A DNA stretch of 64,000 bases, from the NCBI GenBank assembly GCA_039923455.1, contig JBDTCS010000080.1:12079-76078 (forward strand), written 5' to 3'. Shown in pieces: positions 1 to 58,261 of the stretch (its first letter is position 1; each line of letters begins with the position of its first letter). The stretch is from Candidatus Kapaibacterium sp. GTDB lineage: Bacteria > Bacteroidota > Ignavibacteria > Palsa-1295. A program made the position numbers and the translations under genes. A model generated the notes under the pieces. The model saw nothing but the letters and a program-made list of their open reading frames with translations. It was not told the DNA's origin and searched no databases.

Positions 1-1822
1 ACACGCGAGAGATCACTTGCTGCAAACTAATTTCGTCATGACGGCCTGGTGTATAGAGTCCGCCACCGGACGTGATGTCGGCATGCTGACCAAGCAGTGT
101 CCAATCGCCGCGAAAGAAATCATCCGGAAAACGAAAGCGACGACCGAGTGTAAGCGAAGCGCCCGTACGATCCACTACGTACTGATAGGCGTAGTGATTA
201 TTATATACTGTGAATCCGAGCGATGTTGGATGCTGAAACAACCACGGCTCCGTAAAGCTGATCGAAAAATTTCGGTACGCTTGTTGACCGAATTCCGCGG
301 TTACCGATAGCACCTGTCCGCCGCCACCATGGAGTGGATCGGACATATCAAAGTTGTTAAACGAAACACCGACCGAACCGGTGAGTCCGAGCGAACCGCC
401 ATAGCCAACCGATGCGTTGAACGTGTCGCTCGAACGCTCTTCGACGTTATACGTAACATCAACGTCCGTCGCGTCCGGCGGCATCTTCACTTCCGGCGAT
501 TGCAGCTTCTCTTGATTGAAATAGTTAAGCTGTGCAAGCTGACGTATCGAACGAATGATTGCTGCACGACTGAATGCTTCACCAGGCCGTGAATAGAGCT
601 CTCGGCGAACGACAAAGTCTTTCGTCTTCGTATTGCCTTGCACTTCTACAAATCGGAAAAAGTGCTGCTTTCCTTCTTGAATGCGAAGTGCGATATCGAG
701 TGAATCGCCAGGCAGGACAGTCTCTTCCTTGTTAATATTTACGAGATAGCCGCGATCGTAATAGAGCGAACCGACATCGTTAAAATCAGGTGTAGGTCCG
801 TGTGTGTTTAGCTCGAAGCGCTCGAGATTATAGATGTCGCCTTTGTTAAAACCAAGATGTTGACGAATCTCAGTTTCGGTGAACACTTCGTTCCCGAGGA
901 TCGCTATATTGCGAATACGATACTGCGGACCTTCATAGAGATGGATCAGAATGCTGAGATCATTTCCATTCTCGACCCAGACCGAATCACCGAGTATCGC
1001 GACATCACGAAATCCGTGCGATCGATAATAGGTAAGCAAGAGTTTTTTATCGATCGCGTATTTCTTCTCGTCGAAACTACCACTTGTAAAAATCTTATAC
1101 CAACGCTTCTCGTGCGTGTCATCGAAGGTACTGCGAAGATCAGCCGAAGGCACTTGCGTGTTACCTGTGAAGTCGATATGCCGAACCGTAACCTCGGCGC
1201 CCTCGCTGATATTTACATCAAGATCGACGTTGGCGGCATTCTCTTTTGTCGGAGTCTGAACAAACTTTACGTCCGCAAAATGGTAGCCTTCTTTTTCATA
1301 GAGCGCTTTGATGCGCCGACGCGCATCTTGCAACTCCCACGGACGAATGAATTCGTAATTGCGAGGATGAAAAGCTTTTTCGATCTCGGCTGTCTTGATC
1401 TCTTTGTTACCATTAATCGTAACCTTGCCGAGGCGCGGAAATTCTTTTACTTTAATGATGAGGAACACACCGAGTGAACCATCGGCTTGTGGTACTGCTT
1501 TGTCAATCGAAATTTCAACGTTGGAAAATATTCCTTGGGACCAGAGCTGCTGCATTCCTCGACGCGTCTCATCGCTTGGAATAGTAATTTTCTGACCCTT
1601 GAGCAATCCTGACTGACCGATGATTGTCTCTGCACTTCCGCTCAGATTACCTTCGACGGTGATGCCGAGAATTTTGTACTCTTGATCTACGGGTTGCGAG
1701 GGAGGTGGTGGCGCGTTGAGGCCGTTCGGACTCGATATCTGTGCAAAAGCGACCGGAAGGTTAAATGGCGCAAAAACAGCGAGAAGCGCCGCGAGCGCAA
1801 TCAATAACCGGGAAAATCGCAT
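1..1822 (-). CDS. bamA: Outer membrane protein assembly factor BamA (Omp85 family), partial: signal peptide, POTRA repeats and start of barrel; 3' end runs off the window
   Basis: Hand translation of the minus strand from ATG 1822..1820 gives MRFSRLLIALAALLAVFAPFNLPVAFAQ (signal peptide), then POTRA-like repeats, then FSISFTEPWLFQHPTSLGFTVYNNHY (barrel start). The frame stays open to position 1. The ORF track omits it because it is edge-truncated. uppS lies immediately upstream on the same strand, the conserved uppS...bamA arrangement. Confidence 0.85.
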   Translation of the reverse strand, partial: MRFSRLLIALAALLAVFAPFNLPVAFAQISSPNGLNAPPPPSQPVDQEYKILGITVEGNLSGSAETIIGQSGLLKGQKITIPSDETRRGMQQLWSQGIFSNVEISIDKAVPQADGSLGVFLIIKVKEFPRLGKVTINGNKEIKTAEIEKAFHPRNYEFIRPWELQDARRRIKALYEKEGYHFADVKFVQTPTKENAANVDLDVNISEGAEVTVRHIDFTGNTQVPSADLRSTFDDTHEKRWYKIFTSGSFDEKKYAIDKKLLLTYYRSHGFRDVAILGDSVWVENGNDLSILIHLYEGPQYRIRNIAILGNEVFTETEIRQHLGFNKGDIYNLERFELNTHGPTPDFNDVGSLYYDRGYLVNINKEETVLPGDSLDIALRIQEGKQHFFRFVEVQGNTKTKDFVVRRELYSRPGEAFSRAAIIRSIRQLAQLNYFNQEKLQSPEVKMPPDATDVDVTYNVEERSSDTFNASVGYGGSLGLTGSVGVSFNNFDMSDPLHGGGGQVLSVTAEFGQQAYRNFSISFTEPWLFQHPTSLGFTVYNNHYAYQYVVDRTGASLTLGRRFRFPDDFFRGDWTLLGQHADITSGGGLYTPGRHDEISLQQVISRV

Positions 1823-2101
1823 CAGATACTACTTTGTCTTGTAAGATTCGTGTAAACTACCCTGTTCAAATACCCCGCAATCGGCTCAATGTTTCACGCA
1901 AAAACCGTTTTTGGCATTTTAGCGTGAGGCGACATCTAACACCGCAGTCTCGGATAGAACTCCGCAAATTGGGGCTAAGCTTGCGTCAGCCTTGAAAGTG
2001 AGGATCGCTTTTATTGCGGTTGCAAAATAGGTCGCAGCTGAGCGGTAGGGTGCAATCCGGTCGGGTTATACCGCGATTCGGCTTAACGAAAAATCTTCGA
2101 G

Positions 2102-3022
2102 TTAAGAGTTCTTGCCCGTGATTGTGCTGATCAGACGTTCCACGTAGCTTTTGTGTTCTTCGCTGACCGCATCATCTTGCTTCACCTGAGCTCCGGTAAG
2201 GCCAAAGCGGCGCTCGCGTTTTTGGTAATCGCGGATCGCGTCATATAAATTCTCTCGACGGAAATCGGGCCAGTAGGTATTGGTTACATATATCTCGCTA
2301 TATGCAAGCTCCCAAAGCATAAAGTTCGAAAGCCGAAGTTCACCGGAGGTGCGAATCAGCAGATCGGGATCGGGTAAGTTCGCAGTTGTGAGATACGAGC
2401 GAACAAGATTATCGGTAATATCTTCGGGCGAAATTTTTCCACGGCGAACATCGAGTGCAAGCGTTTGCATTGCACGAACAAGGTCCCAGCGTCCGGAGTA
2501 TGAAAGTGCGAGTGTGAGTGTGAGGCGTGTGTTGTCGGAGGTTTTTTCCATCGCCTGAAAAAGCTCACGCTGTACTTCTTTCGGCAATGCGTTCGTCTGT
2601 CCGATTGTATTCAGCCGCACACCATTCTCCCGCATTTCATCCAGCTCTTCACGCAACATTTTAAGTAGCAGACGCATAAGCATGGAAATCTCTTTGCGCG
2701 GACGTTTCCAATTTTCCGTGCTGAAAGCATACACCGTTAAATATTCCAAACCCAACTCTCGGGATGCGCGCGTAGCATCACGCACACTTGCAATTCCGGC
2801 TTGATGCCCCGCAATGCGTGGCAGGCCGCGCTCTTCAGCCCAGCGACCATTTCCATCCATGATCACAGCGATGTGATTCGGTACTTTACCGGCGCGAAGA
2901 AGCTCCTGCTGTACTTCTTTATCCTCGGCCGTCTGTTTGTATGGTGTGCTTCTAAGAAATCGGCTCAAGAGTGGTTTGGGCTTTATTGATTCAGAATGCT
3001 TCAAGTTCCGAAACGTATACAA
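2102..3022 (-). CDS. uppS: Undecaprenyl diphosphate synthase (cis-prenyltransferase)
   Basis: Motifs HIAVIMDGNGRWA, YAFSTENWKRP and RTSGELRLSNFMLWELAYSEIYVT closely match E. coli UppS. The track start at 3022 is a TTG, so the true start is probably internal and is uncertain. Confidence 0.85.
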   Translation of the reverse strand: MYTFRNLKHSESIKPKPLLSRFLRSTPYKQTAEDKEVQQELLRAGKVPNHIAVIMDGNGRWAEERGLPRIAGHQAGIASVRDATRASRELGLEYLTVYAFSTENWKRPRKEISMLMRLLLKMLREELDEMRENGVRLNTIGQTNALPKEVQRELFQAMEKTSDNTRLTLTLALSYSGRWDLVRAMQTLALDVRRGKISPEDITDNLVRSYLTTANLPDPDLLIRTSGELRLSNFMLWELAYSEIYVTNTYWPDFRRENLYDAIRDYQKRERRFGLTGAQVKQDDAVSEEHKSYVERLISTITGKNS

Positions 3023-3112
3023 CAGAAGAAGAATGCACTTGTTTGGCTAAATGGTTCGGGAAAAATGGGTGCCTATAAGGTCGGTGGTTGATGTCCTGCG
3101 TCCTCGATCTAA

Positions 3113-3150
3113 TAAAAAAGAGGCAGCGAAGTTGTTACTTCACTGCCCCT
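3113..3150 (-). terminator. Rho-independent terminator after the Spy/CpxP-like gene
   Basis: Hairpin ggcagcgaag/cttcactgcc at 3123-3148. On the minus strand it is followed by a T-run (the plus-strand A-run at 3113-3119). Confidence 0.5.
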
Positions 3151-3205
3151 TCTAATCTGGGCTTAGCGCATTTCCTTACGCTTTTGCTAACTCGAGTCCG
3201 AGACT

Positions 3206-3655
3206 TTAGTGGCCTCTATGCTCGCGACGATCTTCGCGCATCTCCTTGAACTTCTTGAGTTGTTCCGGAGTAAGTACACCTTTGAGTTGTCCTCGCATCG
3301 CTTTCTGATCTGTGCGAAGTTGCATGCGTGCGGCTTTGCGATTAGCATCGGTTGCAGCATGTACGGCATCACGATCCGCACGAAGCCTTGCGGCATTTTG
3401 CTCAAGCACTGTGCGCATTTGCGCAGCTTGCTGATCGGTTAGGTTGAGCTTTTTCTGTAAGTGCTCCATCCGCTTTTGGATCTTCTCTTCCGGTGTGAGC
3501 TTCTGATAGGTTGTCGCCGGTGCAATCTGACCCGGCGGCGTTTGGGCGGCTGTTTGTGCGGATGCCTGCGTGTTCATCGCAGTCACACCCATTAGGCTCA
3601 AACCAAGAACCATCACTCCTGTGCGCATTCCAATCTTCATTCTGTTCGTATTCAT
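3206..3655 (-). CDS. Periplasmic LTXXQ-motif protein (Spy/CpxP/ZraP-like chaperone family)
   Basis: Signal peptide MRTGVMVLGLSLMGVTA. Two LTXXQ motifs (LTDQQAAQMRTVL, LTPEQLKKFKEMRE). Predicted all-helical charged protein of 149 aa. Confidence 0.6.
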   Translation of the reverse strand: MNTNRMKIGMRTGVMVLGLSLMGVTAMNTQASAQTAAQTPPGQIAPATTYQKLTPEEKIQKRMEHLQKKLNLTDQQAAQMRTVLEQNAARLRADRDAVHAATDANRKAARMQLRTDQKAMRGQLKGVLTPEQLKKFKEMREDRREHRGH

Positions 3656-3802
3656 AGCATTATCTCGTATTAATGTTCAGAGCCTTTTGCTCTTCTGAAA
3701 GACTAATGTCCTTCCCTCACGAATAGATAGAGCGATTAGGGTGCCATCGGTTTAAGCGCGTGGAATGAATTCTTTGTAAGCGAGAACAAATGCGATGCGA
3801 TG

Positions 3803-4177
3803 TTAAGATCGTTTTCGATGACGTTCCCCTTTCGTCTCCCAGTTCTCGTTACGAAGCGCGTTGAATTTTTTTATCTGTTCTGCAGTGAGAATGCTCTTTA
3901 GCTCGGCGAGCATCGACTTACGATCTGCATTTAGTTTTTTGCGAGCGGCTTTGCGATTGGTATCGGTCGCATTGTTATAGGCTTCGCGATCTTTGTGAAG
4001 CTGCGCTTGATCTTTCTCGAAGATCCTTCGCAGTGCCGCTGTCGCCTGATCGGAAAGTCCGAGTTCTTTTTTAAGAAATGCAACTCGCTGCTCCAACTGA
4101 GCACTTCGAGAAGGTTGCGCACTCACGGAACTTCCAACAAGCATGAGCACTACTAACACCAAAACCGATCGCACCAT
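3803..4177 (-). CDS. Periplasmic LTXXQ-motif protein, tandem paralog of the previous gene
   Basis: The internal ATG at 4177 gives the signal peptide MVRSVLVLVVLMLVGSSVSAQ (the track ORF extends upstream to 4273). Motifs LSDQATAALRRIF and LTAEQIKKFNALRNE. Same architecture as 3206..3655. Confidence 0.55.
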   Translation of the reverse strand: MVRSVLVLVVLMLVGSSVSAQPSRSAQLEQRVAFLKKELGLSDQATAALRRIFEKDQAQLHKDREAYNNATDTNRKAARKKLNADRKSMLAELKSILTAEQIKKFNALRNENWETKGERHRKRS

Positions 4178-4370
4178 AGTCTGAGTTAAATAAGTCGGAT
4201 AGGTCCGATGAGACCGATGAGTCCCATAATTCCCAATTACCGCGACCACTAACAAGCCAGCCCGAATCTTCATTCGAGGGAGGCTGCAATAAGGATAAGA
4301 TTGAATTTCGGAACCGCCGCTTGCTGAGGCCTGTTGCAGTCGTCCCTGTCAGAAAGCCGATGCAGGAACA

Positions 4371-4481
4371 GAGCTTGGGCCCAAGTCCCATGCAACGCGG
4401 GCGCGCCCAACCGAGTCAGGTCCGGAAGGAAGCAGCTCTCAGCGATTGCACGTGTGTGACGTGGTCAGCTTGGACCCGATT
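4371..4481 (+). ncRNA. ffs: Signal recognition particle RNA (small 4.5S-type SRP RNA)
   Basis: Contains the near-invariant domain IV sequence GUCAGGUCCGGAAGGAAGCAGC (4415-4436), flanked by CAUGCAACGC and ACGUGUGUGACGUGG. These align with E. coli 4.5S RNA (CCCGCAACGC...GUCAGGUCCGGAAGGAAGCAGCC...GCGUGUGCC). The ends (GGGCCCAAG / CUUGGACCC) can pair. Boundaries are approximate. Confidence 0.75.
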
Positions 4482-4487
4482 TTACAA

Positions 4488-4533
4488 AGACGCCCGCGGA
4501 AAGCATGAGCTTTTACCGCGGGCGTCTTTTTTT
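4488..4533 (+). terminator. Rho-independent terminator immediately downstream of ffs
   Basis: Perfect 12-bp stem agacgcccgcgg / ccgcgggcgtct with a 17-nt loop, followed by TTTTTTT (4527-4533). Confidence 0.75.
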
Positions 4534-5242
4534 GCAATATCGCTCCGCTCTTCCTACCTAAGTTTTCAGCAAACGAACGAATATGCAGAATTCCGTCCCT
4601 GGGAAGCTTTCTTAGTGCTCTTGCGGTTGTTAGTAGCGTAATGTGGAATGCTCCGCTCATTTGCAAGGAGGGTGTAGCTTTTAATAGGCTGAAAAACAGC
4701 GATTTTCGCATGAAAACAGCCAAAAAGTTAGTTTTCTCCCGAATGATCCGTATTTTGCGTACGAACGGATAAGATCGCGCAGGCGCGCAATCGGCGCTTT
4801 TTCGCTCTTTTTCCGGAATTGACTTAATGAACAGTGCTCGAACGGGTTAGCCTGTGAAGCCTTGCATCGAAATTGTTGTGCGATGTGTGAGCTTGCAGGA
4901 GGGTTTTCCCAAGCGAGTGGATGAATGCTTTGATAGCAGTGCAGCATGTTAGCGAGTTCTTGTGATCTTCGCGGTGCGGCACAGAGAAGAGGTTCAGTTG
5001 AATTACAACCAAACTATTTTATACCGATAACATTCTCTTCGTTTCAGGCACCACGCTCTCGTGAGCTTTTTTGGTGCAGTAGACGGAAGGGCATTCGGAA
5101 TAAATTGGAAGTGTACGCTGGGCAGTTGTTTTATATGTATTTGTAACCATGCAGTCGTTCGTTCTCTTTCTCATTTCTATGCTTGACCGCATCGCTCCGT
5201 GGCGTGCGGGTCTTTGCGCTTTCCCTTCGGGGAAAAAATCAT

Positions 5243-5305
5243 CGATGATCCATTACGGATCGACGATGATCCGTAGCGGATCGAGGACGATCCGTAGCGC
5301 AAAGC
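5243..5305. repeat. 21-bp imperfect tandem repeat (about 2.7 copies) inside a long non-coding region
   Basis: cgatgatccattacggatcga / cgatgatccgtagcggatcga / ggacgatccgtagcgcaaagc, read directly. Preceded by the small hairpin ttccc-ttcg-gggaa. Confidence 0.5.
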
Positions 5306-5820
5306 GAGCCACCGATGGGAGAACGCTCGTCCATATGCTCGCGCCGATCTTCGGCGACATCCGAACACATGCGAGACGGCCTGATGTGTGGCTACGATTC
5401 GTACCGAATCCAACCCCAAGTGACACTCGACGATTTTCAGGCTTGCAACTTTGTCCCGCACTCCTTGACGAGCGCACGACCAACTTGCGGCGAAGAACAT
5501 CTGTTACACATTATCCGGGAGCCGCTGTACATCGCAGCGATGGGCCCCCTGTGTTGCGGCGATCTTGCAACGATCTGCTGAAAATCTGTCGATAACGGTT
5601 TTGTGCTTCCTCTGAAAAAAGAGTGCAGCGTAATCGCGTGGACATTTTAGTGTCGCGTTGATGAAATCCGCACGCACTCGCAGGCTCTTGCTATTTCTAT
5701 CATTCGTCCCTCACGCGAAATCCCTAAGCTTTTTTCGAAAGCTTCAACCCTTACAGCGCTGTGGTTTGAACTCCAATAGCGGATTGGAAAGCTATTGGTT
5801 TTAGCTGAAGGAAACTATAC

Positions 5821-7848
5821 ATGCTCCGACTAAATAAGGAGATCATCATCAATGCTCAAAGTGATGATGAGATCCGAATAGCAATAACCGAGAACAACCG
5901 CCTGGTTGAGCTCTTTATCGAAACACCTGAGACCGAGCGCCATGTGGGCGATGTCTATCTCGGAAAAATCGCAAAGGTGATCCCTGGCATGAACGCCGCC
6001 TTTGTGAATGTAGGCTTGGAACAAGATGCCTTCCTCCATTTCTCCGACGTCGGCGATTCATTCGAATCCGCCACAGCCTTCATCTCCGGCGAAGATGCCG
6101 AGATGACCGATGATGACGACGAAGAAGATGAGGACAATGATTATCTCGTGGAAGAAGGCGCTACTGCCGCTGAGCAGAAAGTACTTCGTCCGCGAGGCCC
6201 CCGACCTGGTGCACCATCACGCGGGCAAGATCGCAACGGACGCGGACGCGCACCTGCTGCACCCGCAGAAGAGAGCGGCCCAAAGCCACTCGAACTTCGA
6301 TTGGCCAGTCAAAAAGAGGACAAGCCAGCACCGGCACCCGCATTTCGCGGACCGCAGAATAACAATTTCCCAACGATGCTCCAGCCCAACGTTACGCTGG
6401 AATCAGGGAAAAATATTCTCGTGCAAGTAACACGTGAAGCGTTCGCCAATAAAGGCGTGCGCGTTACGAGTCGCATTTCTTTGCCTGGCAGATTTCTGGT
6501 GCTCGTTCCATTCGAACCGGGTATCGGCATCAGCCGTAAAGTCTATTCGGTTCGCGAACGTAGCCGCTTGCGCCGCATCGTGCGTTCGCTTAAGCCACGT
6601 GAACTTGGCGTGATCATTCGAACGGTCGCGGAGAACAAAGAAGAATCTGCGCTTCGTGAAGATCTCGAGAAGCTTCTCGAACAATGGCGCGAGATCGAGA
6701 AAAAGATTAAAGAGGGCAACTCGCCACAACTCGTGTATCAGGATACGAGCCTCACGTCGAGCGTCATGCGTGACCTCTTCACGCCGGACATCACGCGCAT
6801 CATCATCGATTCGAAAAAGATGCATCGTGAAGTACTCGATTACGTCGAGTGGGCTGCGCCGAACTTGACGGGCACCGTTGAACTTTATCGCGATACGCAA
6901 CCGCTATTCGATTCGTTTAATATTGAGCGACAGATCGAGCAGACGCTCGTGCGTAAAATACCCTTGCCATCTGGCGGATATCTTTTCGTTGAACATACCG
7001 AAGCAATGGTGGTCATCGATGTCAACTCAGGCCGCTATGCTGCAAGACGTGAGCAAGAGCTGAACTCGCTCAAGACGAATCTGGAAGCTGCACGTGAAAT
7101 CTCAAGACAATTGCGTCTGCGAGATATCGGCGGTATCATCGTTGTCGATTTTATCGACATGAACGAAGAGCGCAACAAAAAGAAAGTCTATGATGAGATG
7201 AAGAAGGAGTTTCGCAAAGATCGCGCGAAATCATCCATACTTCCACTCACCGAATTCGGCTTGATGCAGATCACGCGTCAGCGTATTCGTCAGTCAATCG
7301 TGCAGGCACTCTCGGAGAAGTGTCCGGTTTGCGCGGGTACAGGCATGCTCGTTTCCAAGACGACGATCATCAAACAGATCGAACGCTGGCTCGAGCGCTT
7401 CCGCGCAGAATCCGGTGAGCGCAGGCTGGTACTATCGGTCCATCCGACGCTTGGAGATATGCTAAAATCAGGACTGATGTCGCCACTGCGTCATTTACAG
7501 ATGAGTTACTTTGTTCGCATCAAGCTTGAACTTGACGAAGCACTCACAGGCGATGACTTCCGATTTTATAGTCCGAAGCAGAAGAAAGATATCACCGAAG
7601 AATTTTCTTCCGGTGCAGAATCAACCGATCGCCCATACACGGATGAAGAAGATGATCTCGGCGAGAGCCGCATCAGTCACGTCGAAGATGCTCCTGTCAG
7701 TTCCGGCGGATTGCAACTCAAGCGCAAGAATGATCTTCCGGAAGCACCGGAACATGACACACACGGAGCGCCGACGAACAATCGTCGAGGACCACGTGAA
7801 CAGCGTGGCGGAGGCCGTCGTGAGTCGAGGGATCGCGGTAGAAAGTAA
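5821..7848 (+). CDS. Ribonuclease E/G family endoribonuclease (S1 domain, catalytic core, C-terminal Arg-rich tail)
   Basis: N-terminal S1 domain (GDVYLGKIAKVIPGMNAAFVNVG). RNase E/G catalytic core (GGYLFVEHTEAMVVIDVNSG, LRDIGGIIVVDFIDM). Zn-link-like CPVCAGTG. Acidic insert (DDDDEEDEDNDY) and an RG-rich C-terminus. 675 aa. Confidence 0.85.
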   Translation: MLRLNKEIIINAQSDDEIRIAITENNRLVELFIETPETERHVGDVYLGKIAKVIPGMNAAFVNVGLEQDAFLHFSDVGDSFESATAFISGEDAEMTDDDDEEDEDNDYLVEEGATAAEQKVLRPRGPRPGAPSRGQDRNGRGRAPAAPAEESGPKPLELRLASQKEDKPAPAPAFRGPQNNNFPTMLQPNVTLESGKNILVQVTREAFANKGVRVTSRISLPGRFLVLVPFEPGIGISRKVYSVRERSRLRRIVRSLKPRELGVIIRTVAENKEESALREDLEKLLEQWREIEKKIKEGNSPQLVYQDTSLTSSVMRDLFTPDITRIIIDSKKMHREVLDYVEWAAPNLTGTVELYRDTQPLFDSFNIERQIEQTLVRKIPLPSGGYLFVEHTEAMVVIDVNSGRYAARREQELNSLKTNLEAAREISRQLRLRDIGGIIVVDFIDMNEERNKKKVYDEMKKEFRKDRAKSSILPLTEFGLMQITRQRIRQSIVQALSEKCPVCAGTGMLVSKTTIIKQIERWLERFRAESGERRLVLSVHPTLGDMLKSGLMSPLRHLQMSYFVRIKLELDEALTGDDFRFYSPKQKKDITEEFSSGAESTDRPYTDEEDDLGESRISHVEDAPVSSGGLQLKRKNDLPEAPEHDTHGAPTNNRRGPREQRGGGRRESRDRGRK

Positions 7849-7870
7849 TACTATCGATATAAATTGGAAA

Positions 7871-7902
7871 CACCCTTTGAGTAATCAAAGGGTGTTTTTT
7901 TT
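7871..7902 (+). terminator. Rho-independent terminator after the RNase E/G gene
   Basis: Stem caccctttga / tcaaagggtg, loop gtaa, then TTTTTTTT. Confidence 0.75.
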
Positions 7903-8296
7903 GCGCACGAATCGAATTACGCTTGCAGCAACGTATTCCTACACTTGCAGTAGATGCTTTCCGTCTGATTACACTTCCATGAGTTCTCTTTCATTTCACT
8001 CTGATTGGAAATGACTTAGCGAAAATAATTTGTAGTGAAACGAGAACAATTGATTTCGTACAGAATTCGACCGCTCGAATTCATGATTTTTTGGCATTGC
8101 GAAATCTCTGGCACAGAAATGCGATATACTCTTTACAGCCAATCTGAGAAAGGCAGAATGTTTAAGTTGATGAGCAATCGTCCTTACATACTACCAATCA
8201 AAGAAAAGCTACAATGTGGTGAAGGTGAAAGAAGCGCATATGGCCTGAAGTGAATAACTTCGGGCTGTATGCGTTTAAAGCTTTTTGATTCGTGAG

Positions 8297-57583: not shown

Positions 57584-57656
<73 letters not shown>

Positions 57657-57659
57657 ACC

Positions 57660-57702
57660 CCCGCTACAAAAAAGACTTAATCGTACGATGTGCGATTAAG
57701 TC
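57660..57702 (+). terminator. Terminator-like hairpin after the tRNA (aagacttaatcg...cgattaagtctt + T-run)
   Basis: 12-bp stem then TTTTGTTTT. The same hairpin recurs after the next unit. Coordinates are approximate. Confidence 0.55.
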
Positions 57703-57753
57703 TTTTGTTTTGAAAAATTTTAAGCAGCGCACCGGTTAAGATCCCCTTAGCAG

Positions 57754-57855
57754 CTCGGGGTGGAGTCCGCCAGGGCGGAGTAGCTCATCGGACTCAGAAC
57801 CCGAAGTCAACGATCCGACGCGGCGGAGTCGTAGGTTCAAGTCCTACCCCCGCTA
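57754..57855 (+). pseudogene. tRNA-fMet-derived repeat unit with two insertions and a degenerate anticodon arm (CAG)
   Basis: ctcgggg-tggag-[tccgccagggcgg]-agtagctcatcggactcagaacccgaag-[tcaacgatccgacgcggcgga]-gtcgtaggttcaagtcctacccccgcta. Preceded by the leader agcgcaccggtt...cttagc and followed by the same terminator hairpin (57851-57890). Confidence 0.5.
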
Positions 57856-57942
57856 CAAAAAAGACTTAATCGTACGATGCGCGATTAAGTCTTTTGTTTT
57901 GCAAAAATTAAAGGAGCGCACCGGTTGAGACCCACTTAGCTC

Positions 57943-58044
57943 CACGGGGTGGAGTCCGCCGCGGCGGAGTAGCTCGTCGGGCTCATAACCCGAAGTCAAC
58001 GATCCGACGAGGCGGAGTCGTAGGTTCAAGTCCTACCCCCGCTA
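57943..58044 (+). ncRNA. tRNA-fMet-like repeat unit retaining CAU anticodon arm and T arm, with a 13-nt D-loop palindrome and a 21-nt variable-region insertion
   Basis: cacgggg-tggag-[tccgccgcggcgg]-agtagctcgtcgggctcataacccgaag-[tcaacgatccgacgaggcgga]-gtcgtaggttcaagtcctacccccgcta. Position 2 is A, which breaks one acceptor pair. It is followed by a weaker hairpin. Confidence 0.45.
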
Positions 58045-58261
58045 CAAAAAAGACTTAATCTTACAAAGTGCGGTCGAGTCTTTTGTTTTTGCTAAATTCT
58101 AATCCCGTATCTCCTTCACTGCATATCGCTGAGCACAATTCCGGTACAACGCATTCGACAAAACATGCAAAGAATTGGAAAGTCGTGTATACATAGCCAT
58201 ACGACAGGAGTGGTAAGAAATAATACGCAACTAATCTGTCCAGAACAAGTTGTGAAGTGGA

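Follow-up and report, generated by a model that had tools for sequence, protein, structure and literature searches.

What occupies the 1342 nucleotides (nt) between ffs and a gene of the RNase E/G family in a stretch of Candidatus Kapaibacterium DNA that is otherwise closely packed with genes? The stretch examined in this study (contig JBDTCS010000080.1, 64,000 nt; hereafter the window, whose numbering is used unless a related locus is named) encodes the small signal recognition particle RNA, ffs, at 4379-4478 (+ strand; Rfam RF00169, 60.6 bits) and, downstream of it, an Rne/Rng family ribonuclease of 675 residues in an open reading frame (ORF) at 5821-7848 (+ strand; rng/rne, with PF10150 in its homologues). 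An earlier sequence-only reading had singled out the space between them, and the gap is real, being the largest gene-free gap of this compact 64-kb window. That reading had considered a non-coding RNA (ncRNA) or a decayed gene and had raised the idea of a long regulatory leader of rng while doubting it on account of its length; the idea has stood and the doubt has not: stretches of comparable length are found in 11 lineages, parts of the window's own stretch are far more conserved than synonymous sites, and the leader is the best-supported interpretation. The reading proposed here on comparative grounds, to which we assign a probability of roughly 0.5, is that the gap is a long 5' leader or regulatory region of the RNase E/G gene and that it carries a translated regulatory upstream ORF at 5149-5595.

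A long leader region linked to rng across the clade

Its RNase E/G protein puts the window with uncultured Kapabacteria. The comparison set consisted of the window lineage and ten other lineages of the Kapabacteria clade, whose RNase E/G proteins are 57-77% identical. In the window lineage and in ten out of ten of the others, rng is preceded by 0.8-1.4 kb without a domain-bearing gene: 827 nt in L001, 1041 nt in L163 and 908 nt in L166 (both following ffs), 1391 nt in L164, 1089 nt in L167, 1025 nt in L168, 1362 nt in L169, 1296 nt in L170, 1037 nt in L171 and 810 nt in L172. Because the upstream neighbour varies between lineages, with at least six kinds observed (ffs, an esterase operon, a glucosamine-6-phosphate isomerase gene, an ABC-F ATPase gene, a peroxiredoxin operon and a gene for a secreted protein), the long stretch travels with rng and not with ffs. 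Among Ignavibacteria-like relatives (approximately 50% identity), only 220-350 nt separate ffs from rng, and the longer distance of approximately 700 nt seen in some of them results from the insertion of a GIY-YIG-like ORF (MFYVYI...GQT...; L002 5264-5641 and L006 3730-4011). The region in the Kapabacteria clade is long, lies on the same strand as the Rne/Rng gene and directly upstream of it, and is conserved together with that gene, as is characteristic of Rne/Rng leaders. By comparison of these genomes, a long leader region linked to rng is a clade-wide feature.

The upstream boundary of the element in the window is set by ffs, which lies outside it and is followed by an intrinsic terminator at 4486-4535 (+ strand; inverted repeat I3), consisting of a hairpin at 4486-4529 and seven U residues (-32.4 kcal/mol, z -7.7). 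Read-through from ffs is unlikely because this terminator is strong.

Could the gap instead hold the remnant of a decayed gene or mobile element? Such an origin would account for a long gene-free stretch, for the overlapping short ORFs within it and for a tandem repeat; it would also predict traces of the former gene or element, and none were recovered. The six-frame segments of the gap matched nothing in Pfam and, by tblastn, nothing in 160 related loci, and residual similarity to a known protein, sought in all frames with Pfam, tblastn and phmmer, was not found; the homologues of the one long ORF, identified with HMMER, are confined to its own strain cluster. The gap has no second copy in the 64-kb window, and both a dispersed repeat or mobile element and a pseudogene were rejected. 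The same architecture recurs in ten other lineages, and blocks of the region are under strong purifying selection (see below). A decayed gene or element is accordingly considered very improbable.

An upstream reading frame kept open

The only nucleotide similarity that survives between lineages is found around window positions 5150-5221, at the in-frame start of an ORF of 148 codons at 5149-5595 (+ strand; ATG start, TAA stop). No blastn or nhmmer similarity was detected between the window region and L001, the nearest relative at species level (70% amino-acid identity), and a metagenome scan yielded no closer relative; the closer strains emerged from the protein search. A counterpart ORF of 84-148 codons occurs in every lineage, with its stop codon 111-225 nt before rng. 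The homologous start codon, placed by similarity in ten lineages, is ATG, GTG or TTG, the first base varying and the TG being kept, and the ORF of L172, found without start similarity, begins with GTG. The predicted products begin with MQSFVLFLISMLDRIAPWRAG... in the window, (L)QTFISFLMYLLDCLTSWWAGP in L163, (V)NPLVLTLIILLDRLTAWWTGP in L166, (L)NSLVTTLFVLLDRLTAWWLGP in L164, (V)KFV... in L001, L169 and L171, (V)TFV... in L170, (V)KFVLYLL... in L167 and MKFVYYLL... in L168. Gene callers have treated the ORF inconsistently, reporting it as a hypothetical protein in several assemblies, skipping it in most and choosing another frame in L166.

The frame itself is open to a degree that is difficult to attribute to chance. 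The other five frames of the same DNA contain approximately three stops per 100 codons, and the combined probability (Fisher) of the open frame arising by chance in seven independent lineages outside the discovery set is 9.6e-7. Insertions and deletions (indels) follow the same pattern. Between the window and strain L161 (GCA_038246045.1, 92% nucleotide identity to the window), seven indel events occurred in the leader and none in the ORF; between L164 and L166, there were 14 upstream of the ORF and two downstream but none in its 366 nt; and between L169 and L170, 35 and 8 gap columns in the flanks compare with none in 315 nt of ORF. Within the ORF, the only changes in length are repeat gains of 21 or 42 nt (+42 nt in L162; +7 residues in P0122 and P0123), so that near-identical strains have products of 148, 155 or 162 residues. 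The repeat in question is a partly palindromic 21-bp tandem repeat at 5238-5299 (+ strand), which reads as IRSGSRT-like heptads in the frame of the ORF and varies in copy number among strains; it had been described previously, and Tandem Repeats Finder recovered it at 5243-5293 (x2.4, score 67) and 5256-5299 (x2.1, score 74). These alignments indicate that the start codon, the open frame and the freedom from frame-breaking indels are maintained across the clade.

The sequence-only reading had stated that no credible ORF existed on either strand, which is correct as regards composition, yet the ORF at 5149-5595 is open and in frame clade-wide. It had also noted a GC-richer block, which was confirmed (GC content of 0.55-0.57 at 5200-5600 vs 0.43-0.49 in the flanks), while missing that this block is an evolutionarily maintained ORF and that the 21-bp repeat lies inside it as an in-frame heptad. 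Its impression that the region lacked a sensible coding composition was likewise supported: under a codon-usage model trained on 32 window genes, for which the 5th percentile of real-gene windows is 0.105, the best-frame score was at most 0.03 over 4300-5800, compared with 0.12-0.36 in rng. The codon-usage scores of the ORF are negative, and its frame is the best-scoring one in only 4 of 11 lineages.

The body of the ORF does not evolve like a protein. Mismatches at the first, second and third codon positions amount to.50/.35/.41 for the ORF in the L164/L166 pair, compared with.12/.07/.52 in rng of the same pair, and to.38/.29/.41 for the ORF in the L169/L170 pair; the 21 substitutions between the ORFs of the window and L161 fall 9, 8 and 4 at positions 1, 2 and 3. 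None of the pairs has the excess of third-position changes in the ORF that purifying selection on amino acids would leave. Between lineages, the ORF products cannot be aligned beyond approximately residue 25, despite RNase E/G identities of 70-77%, and no product in any lineage has a Pfam match. A word-indexed search of 5.8 billion clusters returned only the strain cluster of the window, and an exhaustive phmmer search of 1.84 billion representatives returned that cluster and one repeat-driven match. AlphaFold2 predicted no fold for the product (mean predicted local distance difference test score, pLDDT, of 35). An arrest motif was also considered, and the GPP or APP present in some products was dismissed as expected by chance in proline-rich sequence. 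As far as these comparisons reach, selection acts on the start, openness and frame of the ORF and not on the peptide past its first approximately 25 residues. The ORF thus lies on the same strand as rng within the leader, with a conserved start and frame and a largely unconstrained peptide, which is the profile of a regulatory upstream ORF.

A start codon and an open frame kept across lineages are equally what a conventional gene would display, and the main rival to the preferred reading, possible albeit rather unlikely, is that the ORF encodes a real small protein that evolves very rapidly and is transcribed together with rng. Such a protein would have a hydrophobic N-terminus, serving as membrane anchor or signal peptide, and a basic, disordered, arginine-rich tail, and might work with RNase E/G. 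In addition to the kept start codon and frame and the absence of frame-breaking indels, this explanation draws on the approximately 25 N-terminal residues, which are conserved and hydrophobic in all lineages and resemble a lipoprotein signal in L001 (MKFVHFFLLFLIGISGC), on the hypothetical-protein annotations in several assemblies, and on a 91-residue basic HU-like gene found at the same position before rng in Bacteroidales. Weaker signals are the coding-like GC content, a net charge of the ORF frame that exceeds that of the other frames, and a second codon position that is slightly the most conserved. It is difficult to reconcile a protein, however, with the lack of third-position excess in any pair, the non-coding codon usage, the loss of all alignable sequence past residue 25 alongside a well-conserved RNase E/G, the confinement of homologues to the strain cluster, the absence of a Pfam match or predicted fold, and the failure of gene callers to choose this frame in most lineages. 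Moreover, the hydrophobic run spans only 9-16 residues and is broken by Asp-Arg in the subclade of the window.

Conserved blocks and RNA structure

The flanking genes of the window and L161 differ at 0.20-0.27 of their four-fold sites (approximately 23%), and this divergence is uniform along the window. The leader departs from it in blocks. A fast-evolving spacer at 4536-4685, with 27 mismatches in 150 nt (18%) and two insertions, diverges at approximately the four-fold-site rate and is followed by block A (4686-5031, + strand), which has only 11 differences in 346 nt (3.2%). Beyond a fast-evolving linker at 5032-5081 (12 differences in 50 nt, 24%) lies block B (5082-5233, + strand), which surrounds the start of the upstream ORF (7 differences in 152 nt, 4.6%), and then the repeat segment at 5234-5285, where 19% of positions differ. 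Block C (5286-5628, + strand) covers codons 47-148 of the ORF and a further 33 nt and has 8 differences in 343 nt (2.3%), of which five fall at first, one at second and two at third codon positions, so that all three positions are constrained. The spacer between the ORF stop and the rng start (5596-5820, + strand) is again fast-evolving, with 29 differences in 159 nt at 5629-5787 (18%), and contains two small hairpins. This distribution shows that strong purifying selection acts blockwise within the leader. Block A is not coding, since L161 has a 1-nt deletion at 4798, and probably represents the promoter and the 5' part of the leader; the sequence CCGTATTTTGCG within it (4748-4759) is identical in L163 and, as a k-mer, is not significant across lineages.

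Recombination was considered as a source of the conserved blocks on account of an apparent gene at 857-1477 (+ strand) with 0 of 77 four-fold differences. It was rejected because the supposed gene, of 206 codons, is only a shadow ORF within bamA, which the opposite strand encodes (- strand; POTRA/Omp85 in L161); its 0% four-fold divergence is spurious, and divergence is otherwise uniform.

Within the ORF, conservation is limited to the first approximately 25 codons and a hairpin at 5185-5212. A run of U-rich codons, which reads in frame as the hydrophobic N-terminus, precedes this conserved RNA hairpin, whose full extent is 5180-5218 (+ strand; codons 11-24), with a main helix at 5185-5196/5201-5212 (codons 13-22) and an outer helix at 5180-5182/5216-5218. 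RNAalifold, applied to five sequences, recovered 14 pairs with a single broken cell; compensatory double changes occur in four of the pairs. The named structure pairs 98.6% of cells and has a covariation score that was not attained in any of 500 shuffles, while all slid registers are only 29-50% paired. The covariation, drawn from four independent lineages, is suggestive of a conserved hairpin and does not amount to proof. A covariance model of the hairpin module finds only the window, L161, L162, L163, L164 and L166, which form the window's subclade; in the other subclade, this position (+36 to +80 of the ORF) is occupied by a stable hairpin unrelated in sequence, and the folding z score there is negative in 10 of 11 lineages, reaching -4.4.

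The other subclade also contains, approximately 260 nt upstream of the ORF, a hairpin of the same shape but differing sequence in L169 (approximately 3230-3300) and L170 (approximately 2235-2305), reading GATCACTTcggaAAGTGATC vs AATCTCTTcgtaAAAGAGATT. This hairpin is followed by a conserved stretch, CAGCTTTTTTGAAAACAT..TTCATTGCACTTYGGACGC, of which the 19-mer is also present in L001 (approximately 5336-5354), and the hairpin and stretch may be a promoter or leader element of that subclade.

Elsewhere in the region, structure is less distinctive. In a sliding scan of folding energy on both strands, nothing stood out but the ffs terminator and the palindromic 21-bp repeat, which is self-complementary and forms two hairpins (-31.9 kcal/mol, z -4.8). 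The small hairpins before rng, at 5726-5744 (z -2.0) and 5773-5798 (z -1.5), are each unremarkable alone. The second of these is the ccaatagc...gctattgg hairpin to which attention had been drawn earlier; it is present, but within chance, as 17 of 200 shuffles fold equally well. By inspection, most lineages have a hairpin within approximately 70 nt upstream of the rng start, and a search for a common structure pairing the upstream-ORF stop with the rng start found no consistent pairing across lineages.

These structural features bear on another explanation, in which the leader is structured and untranslated, or contains an independent ncRNA (for example block A, 4686-5031), and the open frame merely results from base composition and constraint on the RNA. 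Codon phase makes no difference to conservation in blocks A and C, block A is non-coding, the part of the ORF that is conserved best folds as an RNA hairpin and has compensatory changes, the hydrophobic N-terminus could be a U-rich tract read in frame, and the ORF body lacks a coding signature. What such an explanation does not readily accommodate is the frame: fixed by homology, it is open in every lineage against approximately three stops per 100 codons elsewhere (P 1e-6), its start codon varies among A, G and T at the first base while TG is kept, and indels are frequent on both sides of the ORF and absent inside it. No ncRNA of a known family was recovered either. At gathering thresholds, the Rfam matches in the whole window are ffs and tRNAs only, and a permissive cmscan of 4300-6000 on both strands (E up to 10) produced ffs and chance matches, with no match to rne5, rne-II or any other Rfam covariance model; the folding energies of blocks A and C are also unremarkable. 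An untranslated leader or ncRNA is regarded as improbable, though less so than a gene remnant.

Several further observations concern the surroundings of the leader. Upstream of ffs, 79 nt (4300-4378) are conserved to the same degree as ffs itself, with one mismatch over 4300-4499 between the window and L161, and L164 matches window 4305-4483 at 74%; this conserved segment may be the ffs promoter or part of a longer precursor. Just upstream of it are two tandem genes for LTXXQ/Spy-like periplasmic proteins (3206-3655 and 3803-4273, - strand), a neighbour that is shared with L163. Within rng, codons of approximately 90-190 (6090-6400) form an acidic and then Arg/Pro-rich low-complexity insertion in the catalytic region, the length of which varies among strains (a 6-nt gap relative to L161). 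In L162, rng is called as two overlapping genes of 389 and 280 residues (1802-3756), which represents a frameshift or an assembly error. Downstream, rng and a peptidase M1 gene point towards each other across a 448-nt AT-rich gap (7849-8296; GC content of 0.38-0.41), the sequence of which diverges rapidly from L161 (0.77 identity at 7900-7999). Finally, a cluster of tRNA-Met, tRNA-Leu(CAG) and tRNA-Met genes is located at 57594-58045, the last two of which are 98 nt long according to ARAGORN and have low Rfam scores (33-38 bits).

A proposed mechanism and its relation to known systems

Under the preferred reading of a leader with a translated regulatory ORF, we infer the transcript boundaries, the translation of the ORF and the link to RNase E/G autoregulation from sequence. 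Transcription would start somewhere in block A (4686-5031), and ribosomes would load at the conserved start and translate approximately 450 nt of leader. The passage of ribosomes itself, and not the identity of the peptide, would matter, in that ribosome traffic could protect the leader against RNase E/G, whether the enzyme attacks endonucleolytically or scans from the 5' end, and also against premature transcription termination. The 5' module, comprising the start, the U-rich codons and the hairpin, may be where translation of the ORF is permitted or prevented, depending on RNase E/G activity or on structure, and this decision could in turn provide feedback control of rng. In its full form, the proposal is tentative: Kapabacteria would control the essential RNase E/G through a leader of approximately 1 kb, in which a long ORF, free to drift in sequence, is translated purely for ribosome cover and the start, U-tract and hairpin act as a gate for RNase E/G or a partner. 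In a less likely variant, the ORF product, with its hydrophobic anchor and arginine-rich tail, would supply in trans the membrane-targeting and RNA-binding segments of the C-terminal half of E. coli RNase E.

A number of observations weigh against a leader controlled by its upstream ORF. At 84-148 codons, the ORFs are far longer than classical leader peptides, which are typically of fewer than 50 codons. In the window lineage, block C is constrained at all codon positions, while the ORF body is near-neutral in L164/L166, so that the constraint may be lineage-specific. Some selection at the protein level is possible, given that position 2 of the codons is marginally the best conserved in three pairs and that the product read in the ORF frame is more basic (net charge +5 to +16) than those of the other frames. 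A sigma-70 consensus scan of the region returned 0 sites, and no occurrence of the Bacteroidetes -7 motif, TAnnTTTG, was seen there, nor is this motif overrepresented in the window. The folding z scores of blocks A and C are approximately 0; the test appears to be insensitive, however, because ffs itself also scores approximately 0. In addition, the connection between the element and RNase E/G activity is one of gene position alone.

RNase E/G sets global mRNA lifetime, and feedback on it through a long 5' untranslated region (UTR) is established mainly in proteobacteria and cyanobacteria. If the proposal is correct, ribosome shielding would be a form of ribonuclease autoregulation that has not been described for rne or rng; a literature search found no description of rne/rng leaders in the Bacteroidota/Ignavibacteria/Chlorobi group and no report of an upstream ORF in an rne leader. 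The locus offers a candidate clade-wide control element with mutable parts (the start codon, the frame, the hairpin at 5185-5212 and the conserved blocks). Moreover, selection on this ORF appears to target its openness and not its product, a case that may help to separate "translated" from "protein-coding" in annotation.

Feedback on the ribonuclease gene is plausible in light of other leaders and of the behaviour of the enzyme. The E. coli rne transcript has a 361-nt 5' UTR and is feedback-controlled, and cyanobacterial rne 5' UTRs are 458-622 nt long, with U-tract cleavage and approximately 96% premature termination in Synechocystis (PMC10989929). Feedback on rne via a long 5' UTR has likewise been reported in Caulobacter (PMC11321048), and obstacles hinder RNase E as it scans from the 5' end (PMC9943677). 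The window leader resembles the cyanobacterial ones in its great length and in having a U-rich tract beside structure, and cleavage with premature termination is the class of mechanism proposed here; it differs in belonging to another phylum and having no sequence similarity, and no upstream ORF is noted in the part of that report available (PMC10989929). With the rne5 element of E. coli and other gamma-proteobacteria, and with the Caulobacter leader, it shares an unusual length and conserved hairpins directly before an Rne/Rng gene (PMC10989929, PMC11321048). Unlike rne5, the window leader has no Rfam sequence or structure match; its ORF start alone is 672 nt from rng and its whole conserved region spans approximately 1.1 kb; and it carries a maintained ORF, of 84-148 codons across the clade. 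To our knowledge, a maintained upstream ORF is not a feature of the rne5 element.

The closest parallels to the ORF itself come from other genes. In SecM, MifM and VemP, an upstream ORF of approximately 100-170 codons, which begins with a hydrophobic or signal segment and is poorly conserved in its middle part, precedes the regulated gene, and the window ORF is similar in size, hydrophobic N-terminus, poorly conserved body and upstream position. Unlike these, it precedes a gene for a ribonuclease and not Sec/YidC, has no conserved C-terminal arrest motif and is separated from the downstream gene by a spacer of 111-225 nt across the clade, so that it does not belong to this class. The arrangement of mutY, an HU-like gene and rng in Bacteroidales is similar in having a small basic ORF on the same strand before rng; for example, in L039 (Phocaeicola), a 91-residue HU-like gene (5481-5756) lies 244 nt upstream of rng, beside a divergent mutY-like gene, both identified by eye. 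The Kapabacteria ORFs differ in having no Pfam match, no protein-like evolution and no sequence similarity to the HU-like gene. Operons are also controlled by leader ORFs in the cases of tnaC and pyrL. These ORFs and those of the mgtCBR leader are shorter than approximately 40 codons and sense a metabolite or charged tRNA, unlike the window type, which has 84-148 codons without evident sensing codons. The proposed likeness to such systems, among them the Salmonella mgtCBR leader with its short ORFs (PMC3641672), is that translating an ORF within a long leader would set downstream expression while most of the peptide identity is unimportant.

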